From NCBI GenBank assembly GCA_036229005.1, contig JAZAMN010000064.1, positions 43,309-107,308 of the forward strand: a stretch of 64,000 nucleotides of DNA, in the 5' to 3' direction. Both the position numbers and the translations under genes were made by a program. The notes under the pieces were generated by a model. That model saw only the letters and a program-made list of their open reading frames with translations, was not told the DNA's origin and made no database searches. Positions 48,678 to 63,866 of the stretch are shown here, piece by piece. The DNA comes from Myxococcota bacterium. Lineage in GTDB: Bacteria; Myxococcota_A; UBA796; CAJQPC01. How positions within the stretch are numbered: the stretch's first letter is position 1; the number at the start of each line of letters is the position of its first letter.

Positions 48678-50177
48678 ATGACAGCCACCCGTACACATGT
48701 GGAGCGCGCCCGGCAGCGGGTCGTCCTGGGCGCCGCGACCGCCACCTGGCTGCGTCACGCGGCGCTGGCGCTGGGCGTGGCGGGGGCGGGCTGCCTGCTG
48801 ATCCGCCTCGGGGGAGGGGAGATGCCGTGGACCCTGGCCCCCCTGGGTTTCGTCGCGATCACCCCTCTGAGCGTCGCACTCGCGCTGCGCGGCAAGCTGC
48901 CCACCCTGGACACCATGGCCGCCTGGGTGGACCGGGAGCAGGGCGGAGCGGGCAAGGTCGTGACCGCCCTGGAGCTGGGCGGGGATACGGAGATCTTCGC
49001 GGAGCTGCCTCGGGTTCGTCTGTGGCCGTCTGCGCGGCATGCGCTGGCCGGAGCGGCATTCCTGGCGCTGGCGCTGCTGCTCCCGGTGCGCCCCATCCTG
49101 GCCGAGCCGGCCCTGGTGGATGGCCCCGGGGTGGAGCAGCTCGAGGCCCAGCGGGAGGCCCTTGAAGAGGCGCTGGCCCTCCAGGAGGACGAGCAGGAGG
49201 CGCTGGAGGAGTCCATCGACGCGCTGCGCAGCGAGCAGGCCCGCGCGAACCCGGAGGCCGCTCTGGAGGCGATGGACGCTCTGGAGAGCCGCATGGAGGA
49301 GCTCGCTCGCTCGGCTCAGCAGGCCGCACAGAGCGCGCAGGAGGCCATGGAGCAGGCGGAGCAGTCCGCCCAGGAGGCCCAGCAGGCGGCTGAGGAGGCC
49401 GCGAGCGCTCAGGCCTCGGAGCAGGCCCGGAGGCAGGCAGAGGAGGCCAGGAAGGCGGCCCAGGAGGCTCAGCAGTCCACCGCTCAGGCTGCCGCGGAGG
49501 CTCTGGCCCAGTCGGGGCTCAAGCTCCCCGGCGAGGCCACCGAGGCGCTGAACGGCGCGGGCCTGAGCGCGGAGCAGATCCAGTCCGGCCAGATGGACAG
49601 CCAGCAGCTCGCGGACGCCATGGCCAAGATGAGCGCGGAGCAGCTCCAGGCGATGCAGAAGGGCCTCCAACAGGGGCTGGCCCAGCAGATGGCGCAGCTC
49701 GCCCAGGCCGGTCTGGGCGAAGGACTCCCCAGCGCGGGCCAGGGGCAGGGCGAGGGTCAAGGCCAGGGTGAGGGCCAAGGCCAGGGGCAAGGCCAGGGGC
49801 AAGGCGAAGGCCAGGGCCAGGGCGAAGGTCAGGGCCAGGGTCAGGGCGAAGGTCGGGGCCAGGGCCAAGGTCAGGGGGGCCAGGCGGGTCAGGGGGGCGT
49901 GGCGCGGGGACCCGGCACCGCGGAGATCACCTTCGGAGAGGAGCGGCCCGACCAGAGCGAGCGCTTCACCCCCACGCGCCTGAGCCCCGGTGAGCTCGAC
50001 CTGGCCTCGTCGGCGCTGATCGGAGAGGGCTTCACGGACGCCGAGGTGCAGGTGGTGCGCGGCGCGGATGGGGCCGTGCAGGTAGTGTCCTCGTCGGGAG
50101 AGGACACCCACCGTCGGCGCCTGGCGCCCAGTCACCAGCAGGCCGTGTCCACCTGGTTTGCTGTGGAAGAGGAGTAG
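48678..50177 (+). CDS. Membrane-anchored coiled-coil protein with GQ-rich tract (MoxR-operon associated)
   Basis: Three TM segments; A/E/Q coiled coil; (GQ/GE)n tract; GGVARGPG motif. Confidence 0.75.
   Translation: MTATRTHVERARQRVVLGAATATWLRHAALALGVAGAGCLLIRLGGGEMPWTLAPLGFVAITPLSVALALRGKLPTLDTMAAWVDREQGGAGKVVTALELGGDTEIFAELPRVRLWPSARHALAGAAFLALALLLPVRPILAEPALVDGPGVEQLEAQREALEEALALQEDEQEALEESIDALRSEQARANPEAALEAMDALESRMEELARSAQQAAQSAQEAMEQAEQSAQEAQQAAEEAASAQASEQARRQAEEARKAAQEAQQSTAQAAAEALAQSGLKLPGEATEALNGAGLSAEQIQSGQMDSQQLADAMAKMSAEQLQAMQKGLQQGLAQQMAQLAQAGLGEGLPSAGQGQGEGQGQGEGQGQGQGQGQGEGQGQGEGQGQGQGEGRGQGQGQGGQAGQGGVARGPGTAEITFGEERPDQSERFTPTRLSPGELDLASSALIGEGFTDAEVQVVRGADGAVQVVSSSGEDTHRRRLAPSHQQAVSTWFAVEEE
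49737..49895 (+). repeat. Degenerate coding hexamer repeat encoding (GQ/GE)n
   Basis: Tandem ggccag/ggcgaa/ggtcag units within the CDS. Confidence 0.85.
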
Positions 50178-50179
50178 CT

Positions 50180-51196
50180 GTGTCGGAGCTGATGGAAGCG
50201 CAGACCCTGAGCCGGGCGCAGGCCCTGGGTCAGTCCCTGATCGACGGGCTCAACGCCCGCCTGCTCGGACAGGAGCAGCTCGTGCACATGGTGGCCGTGG
50301 CCTGCCTGGCGCGGGGGCACGTGCTGCTGGAGGGCCTGCCCGGGCTGGGCAAGACCGAGCTGGTCAAGGGCGTGGCCGGCTTCTTGGGCCTGGACTTCCG
50401 GCGGGTGCAGTTCACCCCGGACCTGCTCCCGGGCGACGTCACTGGAGGCCCCGTGCTGGAGGAGAAGGACGGCGCGCGCCGCTTCGTCTTCCACCCAGGC
50501 CCCATCTTCGGGAACGTGGTGCTCGCGGACGAGATCAACCGCGCCAGCCCGCGCACCCAGTCTGCGATGCTGGAGGCGATGCAGGAGCGCCGGGTGACCG
50601 TGCTGGGGGAGACCCACCCTCTGCCGGACCCCTTCTGGGTCCTGGCCACCCAGAACCCCATCGAGCTGGAGGGCACCTTCCCCCTGCCCGAGGCCCAGTT
50701 GGACCGCTTCTTGTTCAAGCTCGACGTCCGCCGCGTGGGGGCCGACACCCTGACCACGCTGCTCACCGAGCGCCGCCGGGGGCGCCCCCCGGAGCCGGTC
50801 GCGGTCTCCGACAAGGCCGGCCTGGACGCGCTCTTTGACGCCGTGGACCAGGTCTTCCTGCCCAAGGCGGTGGCCGCGTACATCGCCCGGCTGGTCAACG
50901 CGACCCACCCCGAGGAGCCCAGCGCCCCCGAGCAGGTCAAGCGCTACGCGCGCTACGGCGCCTCACCCCGCGCTGCCATCGCCATCGCTGAGTCCGCGCG
51001 GGCCCACGCGCTCCTCGCTGGCAAGCCCAATGCCGGCTTCGATGATGTGCGGGCCGTGGCGCCCCATGCGTTGGGCCACCGGGTGGTGGTCGACTACAAA
51101 GCCCGCCTCGACGGCATCAGCGGCAGGGATCTGGCCGAGTTTGTGCTGGAGCAGGTCGACGAGCTTGGCAGCGCGCTCCCTGCGGAGCTGTCGTGA
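50180..51196 (+). CDS. moxR: MoxR-family AAA+ ATPase
   Basis: HVLLEGLPGLGKT, RVQFTPDLLPGD, LADEINRASPRTQSAMLEAM, ATQNPIE.EGTFPLPEAQLDRF, GASPR. Confidence 0.95.
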   Translation: MSELMEAQTLSRAQALGQSLIDGLNARLLGQEQLVHMVAVACLARGHVLLEGLPGLGKTELVKGVAGFLGLDFRRVQFTPDLLPGDVTGGPVLEEKDGARRFVFHPGPIFGNVVLADEINRASPRTQSAMLEAMQERRVTVLGETHPLPDPFWVLATQNPIELEGTFPLPEAQLDRFLFKLDVRRVGADTLTTLLTERRRGRPPEPVAVSDKAGLDALFDAVDQVFLPKAVAAYIARLVNATHPEEPSAPEQVKRYARYGASPRAAIAIAESARAHALLAGKPNAGFDDVRAVAPHALGHRVVVDYKARLDGISGRDLAEFVLEQVDELGSALPAELS

Positions 51197-52887
51197 TCGC
51201 GCTCTTGATGGGCCTGGTGGGCGCAGCCCAGGCCGAAGAGGGGCTGTGTCTGGGCGACGAGGTCCGGGTGGTGGCGGACTACGCGTGGCCCGCTGCGGTG
51301 GGGCAGGGGTACTTCCCGATGGCCCTGCAGGTGGAGAACCTGGCGGACCGGGATCTGGAGCTGGAGCTGAGCTTCCAGTCCACCAACAACAACGGCATCG
51401 AGGTGGAGCGCAGCCTCAGCCTGCCCCGGGGGCGAACCGAGTCCTTTGAGCAGGCGCTCCCGGCCTTCAGCCAGCACGGCGCCGCCTACTCCCTGAACGT
51501 GCGCGCCGAAGGGGAGAGCCTCTGCTACATGTCGCCTCTGGGCAGCTACCAGGGCGTGTCGGGGGATAGCTGGCTGATCTTCCGGGACGCGCCGCAGACG
51601 CCGGGGGAGCAGCAGGTCCTGGAGTCCGGGCTGGGGCTGGCGGACGACCACATGGCCATCGCCTCGCCCCAGGATCTGGCGAAGAGCTGGGTGGCCTACA
51701 CCAGCGTCGACGTGGTGATGCTCGCGCTGGACGGGGAGCCGCCCAGTGAGGCCCAGCTCGATCCGCTGCTGCAGTGGGTGCGCATGGGGGGCTTCCTCAA
51801 CATCCGGGGGGAGGGGGCCACGGCGCTGTCCCAGCAGAACCCCGAGCTCTCGCGCTGGGTGCAGCCGCGCCACGCGCTCCGGGCCAGCGTGGAGCGGGGC
51901 TACGTGCGGGGGCTGGACGGCTACAGCCTGGGCCTGGGGGTGGTCGTCGTGCAGGAGGAGCCCTTCACGGGCCCGGACAAGCTCCTGGACTCGGCGCGCC
52001 TGGTCTCGGACACCGTCCCCCTGCGGCGCTGGGTGAACCCGCCCAACTACGGACCGCCGCCCGCCTACCCGCAGATCCCCGGGGTGGGGAGCATCCCCGG
52101 CGGCGCCTTCGCGCTGCTGCTCTTTGGCGTCGGCATGCTGCTGGGGCCGGTCAACCGGCTGATCCTGCGCAAGCGCCGGCCGGCGATGCGGCTGCTGTCC
52201 ACGCCCCTGCTGGCTGGCCTCTCCTCGCTCGGGTTGGTGGGCTACGGGATCGCGTCCACGGGGCTGGGCGCGCAGAGCGCCAGCTACAGCGTCTCTCTGC
52301 TGGACCAGGAGGCGGCCCGGGTCTCGGTGCTGGAGGCCCGGCAGATCTACCTGGGCACCGCGATCGCGGGCGGCCTGCGCCCCGGGGCGGACACCTGGGA
52401 CTTCCCGCTGGAGATGGACTGGGACAGCCGCTTCAAGGTGGAGCTGGATGCCGAGGGCCGGCTGGTCTCCGGTGACCTGCTCTCCAGCCGCGTGGCGACC
52501 ACCTCTCTGCACCTGGGGGAGCGCAGCTCGCGCCTGGGGCTGGCCTGGGATGGGCAGCGGGTCCAGAACAACCTGGACGCCGAGCTGACCGGCCTCGTGC
52601 TCATGGACCACCAGGGCAGGACCTGGGTCCTGGACGGCGTGCTCGCCCCTGGGCAAGGCGCCGAGCTGACCCTGGTCGAGGACACCGAGCGCGTCCTGCA
52701 GCGGGTGTGGAAGAGCAGCATGGTGCGCTCCTCCAGCGTCGTGGCCTACCCCCGGCTGGACCAGGACATGGCTCCAGGTAGCTACGTCGCGCGGCTGGAC
52801 AGCAGCCCCTTCCTGGACGCCGAGGGCCTGCGCATGCAGGAGCGGGCGGGAGAGCACCACGTCGTCGGCGTGCTGGAGGCACCATGA
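51193..52887 (+). CDS. Exported/membrane hypothetical protein (MoxR-ABC operon associated)
   Basis: Signal peptide; GATase-like LLQWVRMGG segment; TM hairpin with GPVN motif. Confidence 0.7.
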   Translation: MIALLMGLVGAAQAEEGLCLGDEVRVVADYAWPAAVGQGYFPMALQVENLADRDLELELSFQSTNNNGIEVERSLSLPRGRTESFEQALPAFSQHGAAYSLNVRAEGESLCYMSPLGSYQGVSGDSWLIFRDAPQTPGEQQVLESGLGLADDHMAIASPQDLAKSWVAYTSVDVVMLALDGEPPSEAQLDPLLQWVRMGGFLNIRGEGATALSQQNPELSRWVQPRHALRASVERGYVRGLDGYSLGLGVVVVQEEPFTGPDKLLDSARLVSDTVPLRRWVNPPNYGPPPAYPQIPGVGSIPGGAFALLLFGVGMLLGPVNRLILRKRRPAMRLLSTPLLAGLSSLGLVGYGIASTGLGAQSASYSVSLLDQEAARVSVLEARQIYLGTAIAGGLRPGADTWDFPLEMDWDSRFKVELDAEGRLVSGDLLSSRVATTSLHLGERSSRLGLAWDGQRVQNNLDAELTGLVLMDHQGRTWVLDGVLAPGQGAELTLVEDTERVLQRVWKSSMVRSSSVVAYPRLDQDMAPGSYVARLDSSPFLDAEGLRMQERAGEHHVVGVLEAP

Positions 52888-53816
52888 CAGTCCTCGAGGT
52901 CAGGGACATCCACCGGGACTTCGGCTCGGTCAAGGCCGTGGATGGGGTGAGCTTCACCGTCCGGGCGGGTGAGATCTGCGGCTTCATCGGACCCAACGGC
53001 GCCGGGAAGACCACCACCATGCGCATCTGCGCGACCCTGGAGCTGCCCGACGACGGGGACGTGTTCGTCTCCGGTGTGAGCGTGCTGGAGGACCCCCGCG
53101 GAGCCCGGCGGCGCATCGGCTTCATGCCGGACCACTACGCCAGCGAGCCAAACATGCCAGTCCGGGACTACCTGGACTTCTACTCGCGGGCCCAGGGCCT
53201 GCGGGGAGAGGAGCGGCAGAAGTCCATCGACAGCGTGGTGGACTTCACCGGGCTCGGGCCCCTGCTGGACAAGGAGGTCCTCAGCCTCTCCAAGGGCATG
53301 CGCCAGCGGGCGGGACTCGCGGTGACCCTGCTGCACGACCCCAGCCTGCTCATCCTGGACGAGCCCGCGGCGGGCCTGGATCCCCGGGCCCGGGTGGAGC
53401 TCCGGGAGCTGCTCTCGGTGCTGGCCGAGATGGGCAAGGCTGTGCTGATCTCCTCCCACATCCTCACCGAGCTCTCGGAGATCTGCGACGTCGTGACGGT
53501 CATCGAGGCCGGCCGTATCAAGGCCGCCGGGCGCGTCTCCGACATCCAGCGCCAGCTCGCCCCCGACCCCCTGCACTTCCTGCGGGGCCTGGCCGGGCAG
53601 GAGGCCGTTCACCGCTTCCTGGTGGAGCAGCCGGCCGTCAGCCAGATCCGCCCCGAGGCCGAAGGCTGCGTGTTCTCCCTGGCCGGCGGCGACGAGGCCC
53701 TGGCCGAGCTGCTGGGGCGGGCGGTGGCCCAGGGGATCCAGCCCATCGAGCTGCGCCCCCTGGCCGCCGACCTGGAGGAGGTCTTCCTCTCCCTCACCGA
53801 GGGGGTGGTCCAGTGA
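52884..53816 (+). CDS. ABC transporter ATP-binding protein
   Basis: GPNGAGKT, LSKGMRQR, LILDEP, ISSHIL. Confidence 0.95.
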   Translation: MTVLEVRDIHRDFGSVKAVDGVSFTVRAGEICGFIGPNGAGKTTTMRICATLELPDDGDVFVSGVSVLEDPRGARRRIGFMPDHYASEPNMPVRDYLDFYSRAQGLRGEERQKSIDSVVDFTGLGPLLDKEVLSLSKGMRQRAGLAVTLLHDPSLLILDEPAAGLDPRARVELRELLSVLAEMGKAVLISSHILTELSEICDVVTVIEAGRIKAAGRVSDIQRQLAPDPLHFLRGLAGQEAVHRFLVEQPAVSQIRPEAEGCVFSLAGGDEALAELLGRAVAQGIQPIELRPLAADLEEVFLSLTEGVVQ

Positions 53817-55366
53817 TGCGCCTGCTCGAGTCCTGGACGGAGCGCCTGAACCCCATCCTGGTCAAGGAGGTCCGGCAGGCCCTGCGTGGCCGCTACTTCC
53901 GGGTCACCTACGGCCTGACCCTGCTCGCCGCGACCGTGGTGGGCATCCTGACCCTGATGAGCGTCGACGACCCCGACCGGGTCGGCCAGGTCTACTTCAC
54001 CGGCATCTACTTCTGCATGGCCGGCGCCATGCTCGGCCTGGTGCCCTTCCAGGCCTTCGTGGCCGCCGGCGGGGGAGGCCGCGGATCCCGGGCCGAGCTC
54101 CTGCAGCTCACCGCGCTCAGGCCGCGCCAGATCGTCGCGGGCCGCCTGATGTCCTCGCTGGCCCAGTCAGGCCTCGTGCTCGCCGCGCTGCTGCCCTACC
54201 TGGCGTTGGGCTTCCTGCTCCCGGGGGTGGACCTCTTTGCGCTCTTCTTCATCGTCGTCTACACCCTCATCTGGTCCCTGGCGATCTCCTCGGTGACCAT
54301 CGCGGCCAGCTTCCTGACCAACAACCGCCTGGTGCGGGTGCTGCTGATGGTGGTGCTGGGCGCCTTCCAGTTCGGGTTCACCTCCAGCGCCGTGGGGCTG
54401 GCCGCCGAGCTGCTGGACCGCTCGGAGAACCTGCGGGACAGCGAGTTCCTGGCCGTCTCCGGGCTCTTCGCCGCCATGGGCCTGTCCATCGGCCTGTTCG
54501 CCTTCATCGGCGGCACCCTGCGCATCGCCCACCCGGAGGAGAACCGCTCCACGCCTCTGCGCGTGTTCATGCTGCTCTTTGCGTTCATCGGCGCGCTGCT
54601 CAGCTACCTGCTGACCTGGTTCGTGCGCCACCCGGAGCCCGAGTTCCCCCTGGTCGGCTACCTGATGCTGGGCTTCTTCATGCTCATTCCCGGGGGCATC
54701 TTCGCCTCGGAGCCCGAGCGGCTGGGGCGTCGGGTACAGGTCACCGCACCTCGCAACCGCACGATCGCGCTGCTGGCGGCCCCCCTGATGCCCGGCGGTG
54801 GGAACGGCGCGCTCTTCAACACCCTGGTCCTCGCCTTCTTCGGCCTGCTGCCTGCGCTCTTCCCGGCAATGGACCCCGACGAGGGTGACGCCTGGGGCAG
54901 CCTCTTCCTCTTCGCGGGGCTCTGGGGCTTCGCGGCCTTCAACCTGCCCACCGCCATCCTCCAGCGCTGGGTCGAGAACACCTGGGTGCGGGTGGTCGCG
55001 GTGTTCTCGCCCATCCTCTTCTTCATCGTGACCGGGCTGCTCCCGGCCATGGTCGGCTTTGTCATCGGGGACCGCGACCTGCAGGACTTCGAGCACCCGC
55101 TCTTCTTCCCCTGGGCCTTCGAGCGCCTGACCCGAAGCAGCCAGACCTACTGGGAGGCCATCTGGGCGGTCGCCATCGCGCTCTTCGTCATCACTCTGGC
55201 GGTGAACCTGCCCCGCATGAAGCGGGGCGTGCAGGCCGTCCTCTTGGTCTCCAAGCGCCGTCGGGAGCTGGAGGCTGCGCGCACCGACACCAAGGTCCAA
55301 GCGCCCGAGCTGCCCAGCGAGTCCCCCATCGGGGAGGCCGTGGTCAAGGAGGACTCCGGTGCCTGA
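53813..55366 (+). CDS. ABC-2-type permease-like membrane protein
   Basis: NPILVKEVRQALR; ELLQLTALRPRQIVAG; many TM segments. Confidence 0.8.
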   Translation: MMRLLESWTERLNPILVKEVRQALRGRYFRVTYGLTLLAATVVGILTLMSVDDPDRVGQVYFTGIYFCMAGAMLGLVPFQAFVAAGGGGRGSRAELLQLTALRPRQIVAGRLMSSLAQSGLVLAALLPYLALGFLLPGVDLFALFFIVVYTLIWSLAISSVTIAASFLTNNRLVRVLLMVVLGAFQFGFTSSAVGLAAELLDRSENLRDSEFLAVSGLFAAMGLSIGLFAFIGGTLRIAHPEENRSTPLRVFMLLFAFIGALLSYLLTWFVRHPEPEFPLVGYLMLGFFMLIPGGIFASEPERLGRRVQVTAPRNRTIALLAAPLMPGGGNGALFNTLVLAFFGLLPALFPAMDPDEGDAWGSLFLFAGLWGFAAFNLPTAILQRWVENTWVRVVAVFSPILFFIVTGLLPAMVGFVIGDRDLQDFEHPLFFPWAFERLTRSSQTYWEAIWAVAIALFVITLAVNLPRMKRGVQAVLLVSKRRRELEAARTDTKVQAPELPSESPIGEAVVKEDSGA

Positions 55367-56204
55367 GCCCGGAGACGACTCCCTGCGCCTGTCGGAGGTC
55401 TGGCACCTGGGCCTCGCGCTCCCGCGGGTGGGTGAAGACGGCGGCCCGGTCATGGGGAGAGGGGCTGGGTCCAGTACGGAGTTCCAGGACCACCGCAACT
55501 ACACCCCCGGGGACGACGTACGGAAGCTGGACTGGCGGGCCTATGCGAGGACAGACCAGCTCATGCTCAAGCGCTTCCGCGAGGAGGTGCGGCCCCAGGT
55601 CGAGCTGATCGTGGACGCTTCGCTCTCCATGGACAGCGAGCCAGGGAAGGCGCAGCGCGCGGTCGACCTGGCGGCCATGCTGGCGCGCTCCATTCAGCGC
55701 ATGGGGTGGCGCGTGCGCGTGTGGCGGGTGGGGGAGCAGGTGCTGCCGCTGCCTGTTCCGGCGCTGTTGGCCCAGGGCCTGTCTCCGGACGCGCGCAGGC
55801 CGCTGATGGACTCGCTCCGGCACCTGGCTCCCAGGGTGGGCGTGGGCAGCATGGTGGTGCTGATCTCGGACTTCCTGAGCCCTCTGGATCCCGCCGCGCT
55901 CGTCGCGCTCCTGGGCCAGCGGGCCGGCGCTCTGGGGCTGCTTCAGGTCCTGGGGGAGTGGGAGTCAGACCCGCCCGTGGGCGGCAGCGTCGAGATGGTG
56001 GACAGCGAGCTGGGCGAGCGCATGCAGGTCACCCTGGAGCCCGGCGTGGTGGCCCGCTACCGCGAGCGGCTGGAGCGCCTGTCCGAGGCGCTGGATCAGG
56101 AGTGTAGGCGCGCGGGCGGGGCCTTTTCGGCGGTCGTTGCCAGCCAGGGGCTGGAGCAGAGCTGCCTGCAGCTTGGGGAGCGCGGCTGGCTCGTGACAGG
56201 CTGA
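55359..56204 (+). CDS. DUF58 domain protein
   Basis: GSSTEFQDHRNYTPGDDVRKLDWRAYART; DASLSM; ISDFL. Confidence 0.95.
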   Translation: MPEPGDDSLRLSEVWHLGLALPRVGEDGGPVMGRGAGSSTEFQDHRNYTPGDDVRKLDWRAYARTDQLMLKRFREEVRPQVELIVDASLSMDSEPGKAQRAVDLAAMLARSIQRMGWRVRVWRVGEQVLPLPVPALLAQGLSPDARRPLMDSLRHLAPRVGVGSMVVLISDFLSPLDPAALVALLGQRAGALGLLQVLGEWESDPPVGGSVEMVDSELGERMQVTLEPGVVARYRERLERLSEALDQECRRAGGAFSAVVASQGLEQSCLQLGERGWLVTG

Positions 56205-56792: not shown

Positions 56793-57329
56793 TTACTCGG
56801 AATTACCCGAGGTTTCAGAGCCTTGCGCGCTTACATCCTGCTCTCGGATCGCCTCGTCGACGAAGTCCCCCAGGCAGTGCATCTGCCGGGCCCCCATGGT
56901 CTGCCCGATCTGCGAGGCCAGGTAGACCCCCACCGCCAACACCGCGCAGGCCGGCAGCCCCCAGAAGCCCCAGGCCTGCCCCTGCAGCATCCACTGCGCC
57001 GTCCCGCCCACCAGCGACACCACGGCCGCGAAGGCCAGGAAGGCGTAGAGGAACATGAAGAAGGTCCACAGGTTCGGCGCCGGGTGGTAGTTCCCGTGGA
57101 TCACCGCGCCGTCTTCGGTGGGCTCGATCTCCAGGGTCAGCACCGGCGAGTAGATCTTCCGGTTCTGCTTGGCGACCGAGAGGTCCACGTGCCGCTTGGC
57201 GATGCGCGCGCCGACGCCGCACTCACCGCCGTCCACGCGAGAAGCCAGGAGCTCCCGGACTTGTTCGGGGGCCAGTTGGATGCGGCGCTCAAAGCGCGGG
57301 CGCATCCGGTCAAGGTGATCCATGCTCAT
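56793..57329 (-). CDS. Hypothetical membrane protein (2 TM)
   Basis: Start set at MSMDHLDRMRPRF; YSPVL and PAPNLWTFFMFLY segments; two TM helices. Confidence 0.75.
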   Translation of the reverse strand: MSMDHLDRMRPRFERRIQLAPEQVRELLASRVDGGECGVGARIAKRHVDLSVAKQNRKIYSPVLTLEIEPTEDGAVIHGNYHPAPNLWTFFMFLYAFLAFAAVVSLVGGTAQWMLQGQAWGFWGLPACAVLAVGVYLASQIGQTMGARQMHCLGDFVDEAIREQDVSAQGSETSGNSE

Positions 57330-57335
57330 GGCCGC

Positions 57336-57341
57336 ATTGTG
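57336..57341 (-). promoter_or_regulatory. -10-like box CACAAT of a probable leaderless transcript
   Basis: The minus strand reads CACAAT-gcggcc-ATG(57329). Confidence 0.45.
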
Positions 57342-57397
57342 CCAAAAGCGAAACCAGGTCTGGCAGGATTCTGCTGGCCTGCCAGGCGGGCCCCCAG

Positions 57398-57435
57398 TGG
57401 ACCCCATCCATGGGCCCACCCATGGACCCCATCCA
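57398..57435. repeat. Intergenic triple tandem repeat of 12-13 nt
   Basis: TGGACCCCATCCA / TGGGCCCACCCA / TGGACCCCATCCA. Confidence 0.75.
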
Positions 57436-57459
57436 GGACCGTGGGGCGGGCCCCGGGGC

Positions 57460-57930
57460 TCAGGCCCCGGAGTCTGCGCAGGCGTCGGCGTCGTCGGCGC
57501 CCTCGACCTCGTCGATCAGGAAGATCCAGGCCTCGGTCCACTGCAGATCACAGCCGGGGTCCTCGGTGTACTCGCCGGGCACCACGCGGGTGTCTCCGTC
57601 TCGCACGAAGGGATCCAGCCAGGTGTACTCGCGCTCTTCGCAGCCGTCGTAGCGGTTGAGCCAGAGCAGCAGATCCTTGCCCTCCCAGTCCGCGTCCGGG
57701 ATGGGGTCCTCGCGACCGTGTACGTCCAGGAAGGTCAGCCAGAGGCTCTGGCTGGTGTGCGTCTGATCGCTGGGCTCCCCAACCTCGTACAGGGACCGGC
57801 CCTCCTGCCAGTCGATGGCTTCGACCGCAAACGAGGTCCCCGGGTGGTCGACCAAGCGGCCGCACTCGGTCCCCGAGCCGGAGTCCGAGACGTCCTTGTT
57901 GCAGGCCAACAGGGCCAAGAGGGCAGTCAT
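57460..57930 (-). CDS. Hypothetical lipoprotein
   Basis: MTALLALLAC lipobox; ATG directly follows the upstream gene's stop (TGAATG). Confidence 0.7.
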   Translation of the reverse strand: MTALLALLACNKDVSDSGSGTECGRLVDHPGTSFAVEAIDWQEGRSLYEVGEPSDQTHTSQSLWLTFLDVHGREDPIPDADWEGKDLLLWLNRYDGCEEREYTWLDPFVRDGDTRVVPGEYTEDPGCDLQWTEAWIFLIDEVEGADDADACADSGA

Positions 57931-58905
57931 TCAGAGCCTGGCCTCGACGGCGCTCACGACTGCATCGCAGCCATCAGCACCACCGCAGTCGACGGTGGTG
58001 AGCCCATCTGCGAGGGCGCCGTGCACGGCGTCCCGGATGCGACCCGCGGCCCGCTCCTCTCCCAGGTCCTCCAGCAGAGGCAGGGCGATCATCAGGTTGG
58101 GGATGGGGTTCGCGCGGCCGGTTCCGACCAGCGACTCCGCCTTGCCGTGGGGGTTCTCGAAGAGCTTGATGCCGTCGCCCAGGTTCACCGAGCCGCCGAC
58201 AGAGATGCCGCCGGCCAGACCGGTCGCCAGGTCGCCCACGATGTCGCCGAAGAGGTTGCCCGCCACCAGCACGTCGAAGTCGCTGGGGCGCTTGACCAGG
58301 CGCATGCACAGGGCGTCGACGATGACGTCCTCGGAGTCCAGGGTGGGGTACTCGGCGATCACGTCGCGGGCGGTGCGCAGGAAGAGGCCGTCCGACTTCT
58401 TCATGATGTTGGACTTGTGGACGATGCTGATCTTCTTGCGGCCCTTGGACAGGGCGAGCTCGCAGGCAAAGCGCGCGATGCGCTCACAGGCGGGCTGGGT
58501 GGTCAGCTTGACGGACTCGTAGACCCCGGGGGTGGTCTCGTGCTCGAAGCCCTTGTAGATGTCCTCGCTGGTCTCGCGGACGACCAGCAGGTCGACGTCG
58601 TTGAAGCGGGCGTTCAGGCCGGGGATGTTCTTGACCTCACGCACCTGGGCCCAGATGCCCAGCTCCTTGCGCAGGTGCACGCCGGCGGGGAGCTTGCCGG
58701 CGACCCGGGGGGCCTTGGTGCGGTTCTTGAGGATCCGGCCGGTGCTGCGGGCGCTCTCCAGGAGCTGCTCGGAGACCAGACCATCGACGATGGGGTGCTC
58801 CTCCCAGTGGATGTCGACGCCGGCGGAGGCGATGATGCGTTGGACGGCGCGGGCGGTCTCGGGTCCGACCCAGTCGCCGGGAACGAGAGTGACTCGGTGG
58901 CTCAT
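57931..58905 (-). CDS. Isocitrate/isopropylmalate dehydrogenase family protein, divergent paralog B
   Basis: GDWVGPE, RETSEDIY, VHKSNIMKKSDG, NLFGDIVGD; altered cofactor loop ENPHGKAESLVG; AGGAGA RBS. Confidence 0.9.
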   Translation of the reverse strand: MSHRVTLVPGDWVGPETARAVQRIIASAGVDIHWEEHPIVDGLVSEQLLESARSTGRILKNRTKAPRVAGKLPAGVHLRKELGIWAQVREVKNIPGLNARFNDVDLLVVRETSEDIYKGFEHETTPGVYESVKLTTQPACERIARFACELALSKGRKKISIVHKSNIMKKSDGLFLRTARDVIAEYPTLDSEDVIVDALCMRLVKRPSDFDVLVAGNLFGDIVGDLATGLAGGISVGGSVNLGDGIKLFENPHGKAESLVGTGRANPIPNLMIALPLLEDLGEERAAGRIRDAVHGALADGLTTVDCGGADGCDAVVSAVEARL

Positions 58906-58914
58906 TGGGGTCTC

Positions 58915-59913
58915 CTAGAGGGCGTCGATCAGCGCGTCGGTGAAGGTCTTGGTGTCGGCGCTGCCGCCCAGGTCGCCGGTCAGGGTCTCGCCCTTGCCCA
59001 GCACGTCCCAGATGGCGCGGTTGATGCGGTCCGCGATGGCGCGCTCGCCGATGTGCTCCAGCAGCATCACGCCGCTCATGAGCACGGCAAGGGGGTTGGC
59101 GATGCCCTTGCCGGCGATGTCGGGGGCGGTGCCGTGGACGGCCTCGAACACCGCGATGCGGTCACCCACGTTGGCGCCGGGGACGACGCCCAGGCCGCCG
59201 ACCAGGCCAGCGCAGAGGTCGGAGAGGATGTCGCCGTAGAGGTTCTGGAGCAGCAGCACGTCGAAGTTGCTGGGGTCCATGGCCAGGGCCATCGAGACGT
59301 TGTCGATGGGCATGGTGTTCTGGGCGATGTAGGGGTAGTCGTCGCCGATCTTCTTGAAGGCGTCCACGAAGGCGCCGTCGGAGAGCGGGTTGACGCTGGG
59401 CTTGGCGCAGCAGCTGATGAGGCGGCGGCCCCGGTAGCGCATGTACTCGAAGGCCCACTTGGAGATGCGCTCGCCAGCGGCCTTGGTGCTCACCTTGAGG
59501 GAGATGACCTGGCCGGGCTGGATCTCGTGCTCGATGCCGGCGTAGAGGTCCTCGGTGTTCTCGCGGAGCACCACCAGATCGACGTCCTTGTAGGGCGTGA
59601 TGATGCCGGGCAGGCTCTTGACCGGGCGCAGGCCCGTGTAGAGCTCCAGCTCCTGGCGGATGGTCACGTTCGCCGAGCGGAAGCCGCGGCCCTTGGGGGT
59701 CTCCAGCGGCCCCTTGAGGCCGATGCGGTTGCGCTTGAGCGAGGTGATCACCGCGTCGGGGACGGGGATCCCGGTCTCTTCGAAGGCCTTGCGACCCGCG
59801 TGCACGGTCTCCCACTCGATGGGGGCCCCTGCCGCGGCGAGGACGCGAACGGTCGCGCCGGTGACCTCGGGCCCGATTCCGTCGCCCGGAATCAGGGTTG
59901 CCTTGTACGCCAT
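58915..59913 (-). CDS. NAD-type isocitrate dehydrogenase-like protein, paralog A
   Basis: Start [16 protein letters not shown] after [52 protein letters not shown] (Asp-Ile, NAD type). Confidence 0.9.
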
Positions 59914-60024
59914 CCAACTCTCCTGGTGTAGGGGTTTGCCTAACACAGCCAGCGCACCCTGCCTGACACCGATCACGGCCCCCGCGACCCCCGCCCGACG
60001 CCGGCCCGGTTAGAGGCCCGGCCC

Positions 60025-60732
60025 ATGAGATCCCGCACCCCAACAGAGCGCAACGCGCGCTTCGTCTTCGGCAGCCTCCCGATGCTCATGGCGGCCTTCA
60101 TGGTGGCCAGCGTGATCGGCCTCTTCGTCCTGACCCGGATCGGGGGGAAGGCGGCTGGAGCCCGCGTTCAGATGACGTGGTCCACCACCTGCCCCACCGA
60201 GTGGGGCGAACTCTTGACCGCCCGCGGCACCGACATGGGGCTGGGTGACCTCGAGGTCACCCCTGGCGCCGACGAGGTCATCGTCACCGCGACCCTCCCC
60301 GGGCTGGACGGCGATCAGGACAAGACCCCCGCGCTGCTCGGCGCCCGCGGTCTGCTGGAGATCCAGGCGGTCGAGAGCCGGGACTCGGCCCCCGGCGGGC
60401 AGGTGCTCGCCACCAACGAGGACGTCCTGAACGCCTGGTACCAGCTCAACTACCAGGGGCACCCCGCCGTGGAGCTGGAGCTGCAGCCCCAGGCCCTGCT
60501 GCGCCTGCAGGAGCGGGACACCCCGGCGCTGATCTACGTGCTGGACGGCCAGGTCGTGGATGCCTGGGACTTCGAAGAGGGCCCCGAGGAGGACGACGTC
60601 CGCCTCACGCCCGAGCTGGAGCGCACCGAGGATGAGGTGCGGCAGACCGCCGACTGGCTGATCCTGCTCAGCCACCCGCCCGCGCCCTGCGACGCCACCC
60701 TCCAGTCCGTGCTCCCCCTGGACCCGGGGTAG
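60025..60732 (+). CDS. Stand-alone SecD/SecDF P1 periplasmic-domain-like protein with one TM
   Basis: R...MG...V..G...VTATLPG...LLGARGLLEI...GHPAVELEL...LIYVLDGQVV matches the SecD P1 base/head pattern. Confidence 0.55.
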   Translation: MRSRTPTERNARFVFGSLPMLMAAFMVASVIGLFVLTRIGGKAAGARVQMTWSTTCPTEWGELLTARGTDMGLGDLEVTPGADEVIVTATLPGLDGDQDKTPALLGARGLLEIQAVESRDSAPGGQVLATNEDVLNAWYQLNYQGHPAVELELQPQALLRLQERDTPALIYVLDGQVVDAWDFEEGPEEDDVRLTPELERTEDEVRQTADWLILLSHPPAPCDATLQSVLPLDPG

Positions 60733-60735
60733 GCC

Positions 60736-62208
60736 CTATTGGCCGATGGTCCCGGGCCCCAGCAGGCGGGCCCGGTGCAGGGCCGATTCGGCGCGCTGCA
60801 GCAGCGCGGGGCCGCCCAGGGTGTCCGCCACACCGCCGGTGAAGCGCAGGTCCTCGAGTTCGACGTCGGCGCCCTCGGGGATCAGCCCCTCCTGGATCCC
60901 GCCCAGGCGCTGCATGGCCTGCCTCGCATCGCAGCCGACCAGCAGGATGCCCAGGGTCCATGGGCCCACGCGGCCGATGACGTCGGTCTCTCGGATGGCG
61001 CTCTGCAGGCTGTGGGCGAGGCTGCGCAGCACCTGGTCGGCGCCGCCATTTCCTCGCTGTTCCACCAAGCGCTCCCAGCCGTGGAGCTCAAGCAGAGCCG
61101 CGGCGGTGGGCTCCCCGCTGCGAAGGCTCAGTCCCACCTCGCGATCCGCAGAGGACAGGAAGGCGTTCCGCGACATCACGGCGGTGTCGGGGTCGAAGAG
61201 AGAGGCCGCGGCTGCGCGCTGGCGGCGCTTGATGCGCCCCTGGATCTGCTGGACCAGCACGGCGTCAGAGAGCTCCGAGAGCAGCAGGTCTGCCTGGGGG
61301 ACCTGGGGGAGGGGGGCCTTGCCGTAGACCGCCATGGAGAGCTGGTGCCAGCGGTCGTGCCCCCGGAGCGCGGGCAGGAGCGGGGCGGCGTCCGTGTCGT
61401 CCAGCACCACCAGATCGGGACCGACCTGGTCCAGCAGATCCAGCAGCTTGCCGCTGTCGCCAGTGGCCACGACGTTGACCTTGAGCTCAGGGGCCAGGGC
61501 GGAGATCCGCGCCGCGGAGCGGGGGCCGCAGACCACCATGCTGGGGCTGTGCAGGTCCCCGCTGCGGATGTGCTGGCGGATCCGCCAGAGCATCGCCGGG
61601 ATCTCCAGGGGGACGCGCACCCAGCCGTCCGCCCCGATCCGAGCGGCCTCGGCGCGCTTTTGCAGGCCCTGCTCCTGTTCGGAGAAGGCGTAGATGGGGA
61701 GGGTGGCCAGGCGGTCGATGGCGCGCAGGCCCGCGGCGACCTCGGCAAGCGACTCGTAGGGGACCACGGCCGCGAAGGGCTCCTGCCCCTGGGCGCTCTC
61801 CAGCAGCGCCTGGACGTCCTCCACGAAATCCACCTGGACGGCGCAGGAGCGGGCGCGCACGCGCAAGCGCATGGCGGACTTGCTGTCGGGCTCCAGCACC
61901 AGCAGGGGGCGGAACACGGGGCGCCGGCCGTCCAGGGAGCGGCACACGCTCAGCAGGGACTGCATCTCGTCCTGGAGGCCGCCCTCCTGGGTGGCGGCGC
62001 GGGCGCGGGCGGCGGCGTGGGACAGCTCCACCAGATCCAGGGCGGCGGCGGTCTCCTCGAGGCGCTCCAGGTCGGCGGCGAGGGGCTCCAGCAGCGCCGG
62101 ATCGCTCTGGGCCTCGCGCGCCAGCCACGCCAGGGCGGCGACCTGCTCATCGAGCACGGCAGAGAAGTTGTTCCGCAGGCGACCAAGCCCGGAGCGGTGG
62201 ACCGCCAT
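60736..62208 (-). CDS. Degenerate GGDEF protein with HPt-like and two receiver-like domains
   Basis: Start MAVHRSG after GGAGG; DPDTAVMSR...G...ADQVLR...RETDVIGRVGPWTL...FTGGVA...AESALHRAR. Confidence 0.8.
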   Translation of the reverse strand: MAVHRSGLGRLRNNFSAVLDEQVAALAWLAREAQSDPALLEPLAADLERLEETAAALDLVELSHAAARARAATQEGGLQDEMQSLLSVCRSLDGRRPVFRPLLVLEPDSKSAMRLRVRARSCAVQVDFVEDVQALLESAQGQEPFAAVVPYESLAEVAAGLRAIDRLATLPIYAFSEQEQGLQKRAEAARIGADGWVRVPLEIPAMLWRIRQHIRSGDLHSPSMVVCGPRSAARISALAPELKVNVVATGDSGKLLDLLDQVGPDLVVLDDTDAAPLLPALRGHDRWHQLSMAVYGKAPLPQVPQADLLLSELSDAVLVQQIQGRIKRRQRAAAASLFDPDTAVMSRNAFLSSADREVGLSLRSGEPTAAALLELHGWERLVEQRGNGGADQVLRSLAHSLQSAIRETDVIGRVGPWTLGILLVGCDARQAMQRLGGIQEGLIPEGADVELEDLRFTGGVADTLGGPALLQRAESALHRARLLGPGTIGQ

Positions 62209-62275
62209 GCAGCCTCCGTGGGTTCCTCCGCCACGTAGCGGGGTTGGACGTGCACAAGCAACCGGGTCAGACTGC

Positions 62276-63262
62276 ATGAAACCGGTCCGGGAGCCCCCAT
62301 TGCGGCAGGCACGACAGCTCGCTGGCTTCTTTGTGCTGCTCATCGGGCTGCTGTGCTCGGGTGGCCTCGCCGGGCTCTGTCCCGAAGATGTGCTGTGGCT
62401 CTCCGCGCTCCGGGCGGTGCTCCTGAGCCTGCCGCGCCCCATGATGTTCCTCTTCGTCCTGTGGGGGATCTGGTTCTGGAGGCGGACCCGCAGCCGCGGG
62501 GGGCTGGTGGTCGCGGGCGTCGCGCTGCTGCTGGCGGGCATCCCACCGCTCTGGCCCGCCCCGCGAGAGGGCCTGCTGTTGGTGTCCGCGAACGTGCAGG
62601 CCTACGCCGACGAGAGCGAGGCGCTGGAGCAGTCCCTGGGCGCGCTGGGCGCCGACATCGTGCTCACCCACGAGCAGCGCGGGGAGCGGATCCCAGGCAT
62701 GTCCCGCGTCGCCGACAACTACGACCGGGGCCTGCCCAAGCCCAGCCACGGGGAGGCGGTCTACTGCGCCCGGCACCTCTTCTGCGACGCCGAGATCACC
62801 GAGGAGTACGGCGCCCCCGGCTGCGGAATGCCGGTCGCCCTGGCGCGGGTCGAGGCCAGCCTCTGCGTGATCGGCATCCACGCCCCGCCGCCCATCCCCA
62901 TCTGCTCCAGCGGTATGGGGCCCTACCTGGAGACCGTCGGCAGCCACATCGAGGGCGGACGCATGGCGAGCGACTGGGGGCCCTGCAAGGCTGACGACCC
63001 GGTCGTCGTGGCCGGGGACCTCAACTACGTCCCGGGTAGCCGCGCCTGGCGGGGGCTGGTGGACCGCGGCCTGGAGGACCCCGTGGCCTGGCAGGGGGTC
63101 TGGGCGAATAGCTGGCCCGCGGGTGGGGGGTGGCCGATGGCGCCGTTCTTCAGACTGGATCACCTGCTGGCCGGAGACGTGCGGGTGCGGGGCGTTCGCT
63201 ACCTTCGGCTCCCGGGGGCGGATCACCGGGCCATCCGGGCGCGCATCCAGATGGAGGATTGA
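62276..63262 (+). CDS. Membrane-anchored endonuclease/exonuclease/phosphatase (EEP) family protein
   Basis: Three N-terminal TMs; SANV, DIVLTHE, AGDLN, RLDHLL, GADH. Confidence 0.85.
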   Translation: MKPVREPPLRQARQLAGFFVLLIGLLCSGGLAGLCPEDVLWLSALRAVLLSLPRPMMFLFVLWGIWFWRRTRSRGGLVVAGVALLLAGIPPLWPAPREGLLLVSANVQAYADESEALEQSLGALGADIVLTHEQRGERIPGMSRVADNYDRGLPKPSHGEAVYCARHLFCDAEITEEYGAPGCGMPVALARVEASLCVIGIHAPPPIPICSSGMGPYLETVGSHIEGGRMASDWGPCKADDPVVVAGDLNYVPGSRAWRGLVDRGLEDPVAWQGVWANSWPAGGGWPMAPFFRLDHLLAGDVRVRGVRYLRLPGADHRAIRARIQMED

Positions 63263-63353
63263 AGAGGGTTTTCATCTGAACGCTGCTCAAGGCCCCCAAC
63301 GCGGGATCCGTTCTGCCTGATTGTCAACCCAAGTCATCCCCGAAGGCGGTCCG

Positions 63354-63866
63354 ATGAAGATTCCCGAGCTGCTCAGGCAGTCCATCCCCGAGGTCACCTC
63401 CGCGCTCCTGGAGGACCACGAGATCGTCCTGCAGAAGGCCGGCCCCCAGCCCACGCGCCGCGCCGCTGTGATTGGCTTCTCGGGTGATCTGGTCAAGGGC
63501 TCGCTGGGGCTCGCGGTGGAGCCGGAGCTGCTGGAGTTCGCGCACGCCCGCTTGATGGGGAGGTCCCCGAACGCGCGGGAGTCTGACGACTTCCTCTCCG
63601 AGCTCTCCAACCAGCTCCTGGGCCGCATCAAGACGGTGTTTCTGCGCTACGGCGTCGAGATCTACCTGAGCACCCCGATGGTGCTGCGCGGCATCAACAT
63701 CTCGGTGTCCCCGGGGCCCCACAGCAACCTGGTGCCCGCCCATTTCTCCACCTTCGTGGGGCCGGTCAGCGTCTGGATCGACGCCCAGCACGCCCCGGAG
63801 CTGGACGTCCACGAGGTCGAGCAGGCCGAGGACGTGATGGTCGAAGGCGAGCTGATGTTCTTCTGA
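63354..63866 (+). CDS. CheX-like chemotaxis phosphatase
   Basis: AVIGFSG..KGSL; ExxN motif SELSNQLLG; LSTPMVLRG. Confidence 0.8.
   Translation: MKIPELLRQSIPEVTSALLEDHEIVLQKAGPQPTRRAAVIGFSGDLVKGSLGLAVEPELLEFAHARLMGRSPNARESDDFLSELSNQLLGRIKTVFLRYGVEIYLSTPMVLRGINISVSPGPHSNLVPAHFSTFVGPVSVWIDAQHAPELDVHEVEQAEDVMVEGELMFF

Follow-up and report, generated by a model that had tools for sequence, protein, structure and literature searches.

The stretch of Myxococcota DNA analysed here (64,000 nucleotides; hereafter the window) carries two adjacent paralogues, A and B, with complementary active-site losses, which together probably make up an independently evolved heteromeric isocitrate dehydrogenase of the NAD-dependent kind (NAD-IDH), in which each A/B dimer would hold a single catalytic site for isocitrate and NAD. 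An A/B heterodimer is likely because the losses are complementary within a shared active site and the two genes are inherited jointly. The paired feature is real and conserved, and it is apparently undescribed in print.

Results

The A/B locus

Genes A and B (Table 1) are separated by a spacer of 9 nt, and their products are 38% identical. The ribosome-binding site at 59920..59926 backs the start of A at 59913. The AGGAG of B overlaps the TAG stop of A, as reported by the first-pass annotation of this DNA, and translational coupling of the two genes is likely from this overlap. That annotation had also described tandem paralogues with complementary active-site decay, and both open reading frames were recovered where it had placed them. 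All motifs that it quoted were found, among them HGTAPDIAG in A and GDWVG, KNRTKAP, LPAGVHLR, VHKSNIMKKSDG, IVD and HGKAESLVG in B. A search across 57300-60200 turned up neither a sigma-70 promoter nor an intrinsic terminator. In two metatranscriptome runs the shares were small (0.14 and 0.12), and the A/B junction of a close relative was spanned by one 294-nt contig from an RNA run, which is not equivalent to a single transcript and may include DNA.

In profile scans, TIGR00175 (mitochondrial-type NAD-IDH) was the best model for both A (363.9 bits) and B (277.9 bits), in each case below its cut-off of 432.4, and neither protein reached the cut-off of a curated IDH family. Models for IPMDH, homoisocitrate DH and tartrate DH scored lower than the IDH models and below cut-off for both proteins. 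Among solved structures, A and B came closest to 6lky, a bacterial NAD-IDH, and to the alpha subunit of human IDH3.

Table 1. Features of the A/B locus and its flanks, in window coordinates.
Feature	Position	Strand	Remarks
Gene A	59913-58915	minus	332 aa ORF; predicted catalytic subunit, NAD-isocitrate dehydrogenase
Gene B	58905-57931	minus	324 aa ORF; predicted partner subunit
TAG stop of A and overlapping AGGAG ribosome-binding site of B	58906..58917	minus	sequence
AGGAG ribosome-binding site, 5' of the ATG of A	59920..59926	minus	sequence
Flanking gene, 156 aa	57460-57930		begins right after the stop of B; no Pfam or NCBIfam match
Flanking gene, 235 aa, divergent	60025-60732		no Pfam or NCBIfam match
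GGDEF-domain protein (minus), endonuclease/exonuclease/phosphatase-family gene, CheX-like gene	60739-63866		just upstream of A/B; not conserved there

Active-site residues of A and B

Residue numbers in A were mapped from human alpha by pairwise alignment. Identical sequences were left out of all residue counts. So were loci with truncations or frameshifts (L057, L062, L067, L122; in L029 the A gene) and, as other family members, L073, L075, L209-L214 and L217-L219. In human alpha, according to the available text of PMC5241874, isocitrate is contacted by Thr74, Ser82, Arg88, Arg98, Arg119, Tyr126 and Asp230 together with a Lys and an Asp of the partner subunit; the NADH contacts are listed in the available text of PMC5816668, where Asp268 is the determinant of NAD use. 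A matches the catalytic-subunit set of IDH3 (Thr74, Ser82, Arg88, Arg98, Arg119, Tyr126, Asp230 and Asp234), its own cis set being T72, S80, N82, R86, R96, R117, Y124, D228 and D232, and it matches the NAD-specificity Asp of alpha and the NAD contacts through a loop that contains D265. All isocitrate and NADH contacts of human alpha are present in A, each position being kept in 101-102 of the 102 distinct A sequences. D265 is found in all 102, and K67, E257, H260, G261, T/S262 and N273 in 101-102 of them.

Of the residues that act in trans, A has K171 and D204, both in 102/102 distinct sequences, and has lost the Asn (S173 in the window). This Asn survives in 7/102 A sequences, compared with 155/155 for B and 15/15 for single-copy enzymes. 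The first-pass annotation was right that the trans motif of A is eroded, with the Asn lost and the Lys kept; its account of the loss fell short, as the trans Asp is also kept throughout. Erosion in A is confined to the trans Asn, the surrounding loop and helix alpha-6.

B retains HKSN, the trans Asp, three Arg, the Tyr and both metal Asp, and has lost GDGIG, KGP-T, the Ser/Asn pair and the HG(S/T)APD NAD loop. The donated Lys, Asn and Asp occur in all 155 B sequences, and the three Arg, the Tyr and both metal Asp in 154-155 each; the NAD Asp occurs in 21/155 and the loop Thr/Ser in 6/155. With each metal Asp present in 154/155, the Asn/Thr exchange of IDH3 regulatory subunits is not matched. 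Within the taxonomic order to which the window belongs, B has the Thr in 0/56, the Ser in 1/56 and the Asn in 0/56 sequences, and A has the Asn in 4/52, while other lineages retain part of this set. A full cis set combined with a full HKAN in one chain (the PRK08997 / 6lky type) is not the pattern of A or B, A being without the Asn in 95/102 sequences and B without the NAD loop. B evolves faster than A, and within B conservation is poor in the nucleotide loop and in the large domain (41-49%).

Two further patterns were seen. In the taxonomic order of the window, A retains the Lys-Asp-Tyr relay through which human IDH3 transmits allostery, while B has it interrupted (Tyr to Phe in 55/56); Gemmataceae-type loci show the reverse, with the relay intact on B and interrupted on A. 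In addition, the NAD-IDH-like proteins P0050, P0092, P0094, P0104 and P0105 have an intact HKAN with Asn in place of the NAD-determining Asp, and are possibly another degenerate or cofactor-shifted group.

Reciprocal erosion and selection

Regional identity was measured against 24 single-copy enzymes. For the taxonomic order of the window, identities in A/B were 39/72 for the HKxN loop and 36/59 for the trans-Asp helix, and conversely 67/29 for the substrate loop and 80/43 for the NAD loop. Within A, conservation is lowest in the loop and helix that it donates, whereas the equivalent parts of B are among its best conserved. Further families of the phylum show the same direction with a smaller gap for the donated parts (HKxN loop 69/73, trans-Asp helix 40/55), and Gemmataceae-type loci again the same direction, more weakly (55/67 and 41/54).

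In the human alpha-gamma dimer, according to the available text of PMC5241874, gamma Thr81, Ser91 and Asn93 hold one citrate carboxyl across the interface together with alpha Asn175. The residues lost by B (Thr, Ser, Asn) and by A (Asn) are the counterparts of exactly these four. Decay of a single subsite over two chains would be the expectation from fixed A/B pairing. An IDH3-type citrate site, built of the regulatory Thr/Ser/Asn and Asn175 of the catalytic chain, is absent from A/B in the taxonomic order of the window, and the residues speak against activation by citrate and AMP/ADP through the same site. The first-pass description of the second site as possibly allosteric finds no backing here: of the set that binds the citrate carboxyl in the human allosteric site, B has lost the Thr/Ser/Asn and A the Asn.

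Six within-genus comparisons gave dN/dS values of 0.05-0.09 for A and 0.07-0.28 for B, indicating purifying selection on both genes. The pattern recurs in 28/40 relatives, and with selection of this kind on both genes it is due neither to chance nor to decay in a single genome.

Co-occurrence, linkage and fusion

In each of those 28 relatives B comes after A, and the remaining 12 show neither gene; the reciprocal pattern, which the first-pass annotation proposed to look for in other genomes, is conserved in them. In a class sample of 136 genomes, each at least 85% complete and, being related, not independent samples, 79 genomes carry A and the identical 79 carry B, with the two adjacent in the order A then B in 77. 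The other two carriers have A and B on different contigs, and A is truncated there. These counts include the B of G010, taken from the separate relatives search (under threshold), and the A of G030, present as two frameshifted pieces. No genome with A only was found among the 79 carriers, and independent occurrence of A and B orthologues, a possibility raised in the first-pass annotation, was not seen in this sample. The gap between A and B, measured between match ends, is 0-72 nt in 76/77 adjacent pairs. One locus (L029, G030:C170:2748-3753) has an intact B and an A split by a frameshift, a possible assembly error.

Among 38 B-type loci in the genome collection, A lies directly upstream in 37; the 38th locus starts 246 nt before B. 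Tandem pairs were also found in further families of a phylum sample of 251 genomes. In the pairs fetched from those families A has HKA(S/T/D), and B often has the Thr and Ser and is without the NAD loop, which would represent the same signature at an earlier stage. B-type proteins also occur under the source names Gemmataceae or Planctomycetaceae. Of 80 Gemmataceae-type metagenome loci, 47 have all or part of A directly upstream; where the upstream DNA reaches 4 kb (26 loci), an adjacent A is present in 18 and absent in 8, as far as the locus itself extends. As judged from these sequences, the A/B pattern is ancient.

Among 10 long matches, two are full-length A-linker-B fusions, P0123 (712 aa) and P0124 (709 aa, on a 267-kb contig). 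A second 712-aa record, P0135, is 99.6% identical to P0123. The halves of P0123 and P0124 sit in different tree lineages, so fusion likely took place twice. The other eight long matches were excluded from the count, P0125 and P0128 among them, each of which has one IDH domain and an unrelated tail. P0003 (531 aa) and P0005 (395 aa) were not counted as fusions either, being A/B chimeras that have deletions inside them and may be assembly artefacts. In plasmid records, every match among the best 15 of 618 was a single ordinary gene.

Phylogeny

We built a 151-sequence FastTree, a 48-sequence IQ-TREE and a 32-sequence mixture-model tree, in which eukaryotic rows were labelled by motif and two of them checked against the PDB. 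All three trees show separate clades for A, for B and for the eukaryotic chains, catalytic and regulatory together, with IQ-TREE supports of 99/98, 100/100 and 100/99, respectively. AU tests rejected the grouping of A with the eukaryotic catalytic chains (p 0.005) and, marginally, that of B with the eukaryotic regulatory chains (p 0.037). Neither trees nor AU tests thus agree with descent of A and B from the eukaryotic catalytic/regulatory duplication, and an origin separate from that of IDH3 is likely, which upholds the independent origin suggested in the first-pass annotation. A and B as sister clades were not recovered in the best tree and not rejected (p-AU 0.22), so that the source of the pair may be either one duplication or two older single genes.

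Metabolic setting and neighbouring genes

The source genome (G000) has three PF00180 genes only: A, B and a third of IPMDH type, which exceeds the PRK03437 cut-off. It also encodes a monomeric IDH, dapB and lysA. With a separate IPMDH-type gene and dapB/lysA present, leucine and lysine synthesis are independent of A/B. Isocitrate lyase and AceK were not found in this genome, which is 94% complete, and a role of A/B in control of the glyoxylate branch is therefore unsupported. A monomeric IDH is found in 49/79 A/B carriers. Five of the other 30 carriers were checked and each has extra family members, of which 3/4 scanned were NADP-IDHs. The argument that isocitrate must be the substrate of the only IDH in the genome fails accordingly, as carriers often have a monomeric IDH or NADP-IDHs. 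A/B would instead be an NAD-linked isoenzyme alongside an NADP enzyme.

When the neighbours at 113 loci were clustered, no metabolic gene that would name the substrate turned out to be conserved; the clusters were lineage-specific, whether named (YidC, a ferredoxin, an SDR, an MqnC-like radical SAM protein) or not. In Gemmataceae-type loci (L149, L153, L205 and others) yidC often follows B, with or without an adjacent A, and the ORF that often lies after B in these loci is presumably metallophosphoesterase-like. Elsewhere in the window, positions 48678-56204 hold what we take, by eye from the translations, to be a cluster of MoxR-type AAA ATPase, ABC-transporter and DUF58-like genes. On another contig of the source genome, the IPMDH-type gene that passes PRK03437 stands in a row with a thiolase gene and a homocitrate/isopropylmalate-synthase-like gene (L219, G000:C62:112876-116546). 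The synthase-like gene is under all cut-offs, and the row is possibly an odd cluster rather than one for leucine synthesis.

Discussion

Comparison with known NAD-IDHs

By their best NCBIfam model and top PDB matches, A and B belong to the same subfamily as eukaryotic IDH3, and the design is alike, with a full-contact catalytic chain, a paralogous donor of Lys and Asp, and a second pocket that is without an NAD loop. The pair differs in coming from a separate duplication, as the trees suggest, and in consisting of tandem bacterial genes that are at times fused. Eukaryotic regulatory chains have exchanged the two metal Asp for Asn/Thr (both cis metal Asp are replaced in the regulatory subunits of human IDH3 according to the available text of PMC5241874), whereas B keeps both as well as the three Arg. 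Conversely, human gamma keeps the Thr/Ser/Asn for citrate and human alpha keeps Asn175, while B is without the former and A without a counterpart of the latter. The A/B pair is thus like IDH3 in design and stands outside it by ancestry and by the signature of its regulatory chain.

Yeast IDH1/IDH2 (PDB 3blw), described in the available part of bioRxiv 2020.06.25.170399 as a heterodimer unit of two paralogous subunits, likewise combines a catalytic with a non-catalytic paralogue, and a heterodimer is what we predict for A/B. Yeast IDH1, however, has Ala, Phe, Thr and Asn where B has Arg, Tyr, Asp and Asp, as the first-pass annotation had correctly remarked, and it keeps the Thr/Ser/Asn that B has lost. 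To judge by these residues, the A/B and the eukaryotic designs broke the second site in opposite ways. The bacterial homotetrameric NAD-IDHs (6lky; 6ltf/6m3s; PRK08997), which include the closest solved structure to A (6lky), share with it the length and the NAD-type loop; they are encoded by one gene that is complete in cis and in trans, whereas A and B each are without a part, and they likely represent the ancestral state. We take the source organisms of 6lky, 6ltf and 6m3s to be Methylococcus and Xanthomonas. As far as the available texts of PMC8287583 and PMC4360740 go, hetero-oligomeric NAD-IDH is listed for eukaryotic mitochondria only, and PMC7480870, in the part available, takes IDH as an illustration of how an enzyme that is homomeric in bacteria turned heteromeric in eukaryotes only, with yeast as the instance. 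We found no description of a bacterial heteromeric IDH in a literature search from which subscription journals were mostly absent.

Proposed mechanism and alternatives

We infer the physical pairing of A and B, their substrate and cofactor, and the role of the second site from the evidence given above. The working site would combine the substrate and NAD residues of A with the Lys, Asn and Asp donated by B, and would oxidise isocitrate with NAD. The mirror pocket would be made of B's own residues and the Lys and Asp donated by A. Without an NAD loop and without the subsite formed by Thr/Ser/Asn and the partner Asn, it is predicted to carry out no hydride transfer; its near-invariant Arg-Arg-Arg-Tyr-Asp-Asp and Lys-Asp make it likely that it has remained able to bind a metal together with a hydroxy- or keto-acid. 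That the composite site consists of A in cis and B in trans, as the first-pass annotation had put forward, is supported by the 79/79 co-occurrence, the fusions and the reciprocal regional erosion.

The same annotation called the heterodimer obligate, which goes too far, as A keeps the trans Lys and Asp that are the partner's catalytic contribution in the available text of PMC5241874. With both residues in 102/102 sequences, an A homodimer could hold a complete catalytic set, and A might then be an ordinary homo-oligomeric NAD-IDH for which B would be optional, a pseudoenzyme partner tuning or inhibiting it through the exchange of subunits. The faster evolution of B would fit such an arrangement, and K171 and D204 are the two partner residues named for isocitrate binding in that source. 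We nevertheless hold it improbable: the donated loop and helix are least conserved in A and belong to the best conserved regions in B, none of the 79 carriers has A only, and human alpha, with the same residues, has by itself no detectable activity according to the available text of PMC5282582. It is still less probable that B is a separate homodimeric enzyme co-transcribed with A, for example an NAD-independent beta-keto-acid decarboxylase. On its own, B does combine three Arg, the Tyr and two Asp with the Lys and the trans Asp (no fewer than 154/155 sequences for any of these), and 8/26 Gemmataceae-type loci with long flanks have no adjacent A. This reading, however, leaves unexplained why A lost the donated Asn and the conservation of its helix only in B-carrying lineages, and it sits badly with the poor conservation of the nucleotide loop and large domain within B and with the two fusions of B to A. 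As a separate dehydrogenase, the alternative named in the first-pass annotation, B is unlikely because it is without a conserved nucleotide loop.

A genuine A/B heteromer might also act on another beta-hydroxy acid, such as homoisocitrate or a malate derivative. A and B score under all curated cut-offs, another IDH is usual in carriers, and the source genome has the homocitrate/isopropylmalate-synthase-like gene. That gene, however, adjoins a different dehydrogenase, the IPMDH-type one on contig C62; the Thr/Ser/Asn of A are as in human alpha and in the NAD-IDH 6lky, IDH models outscore the HICDH, IPMDH and TDH models, and dapB and lysA are present, all of which makes another substrate distinctly improbable.

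For the second site of the proposed A/B enzyme, a regulatory ligand site has not far from an even chance in our estimation, and a purely structural pseudo-site, in the manner of the pseudo-allosteric site of human beta in the available text of PMC6827300, is a serious possibility too; NAD-independent chemistry there is unlikely. With its three Arg, Tyr and both metal Asp retained, unlike in eukaryotic regulatory subunits, the pocket of B would not be a citrate/ADP site of the known type. We tentatively suggest that it senses a C4/C5 acid (malate, oxaloacetate or 2-oxoglutarate) together with a metal, which would make A/B a regulated bacterial NAD-IDH that was reached by the opposite route from that of mitochondria: the partner would have kept the metal and the Arg/Tyr cage and dropped the distal-carboxylate subsite and the NAD loop.

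Implications

The two-subunit architecture of NAD-IDH is already known from eukaryotes, and the bacterial A/B pair is likely a new case of it. In databases, B-type proteins are labelled 'isocitrate dehydrogenase (NAD+)', though B is predicted to be inactive alone. If the proposed reading is true, the pair is an independent bacterial case, and so a natural replicate of the transition from homomer to heteromer, with residue losses unlike the eukaryotic ones. The living lineages form a graded series from barely to strongly diverged partners, with fusions in addition, which would make the transition directly testable, and the single-chain fusions should express easily. A/B would thereby test whether heteromers arise because complementary losses accumulate neutrally or because regulation is selected for.
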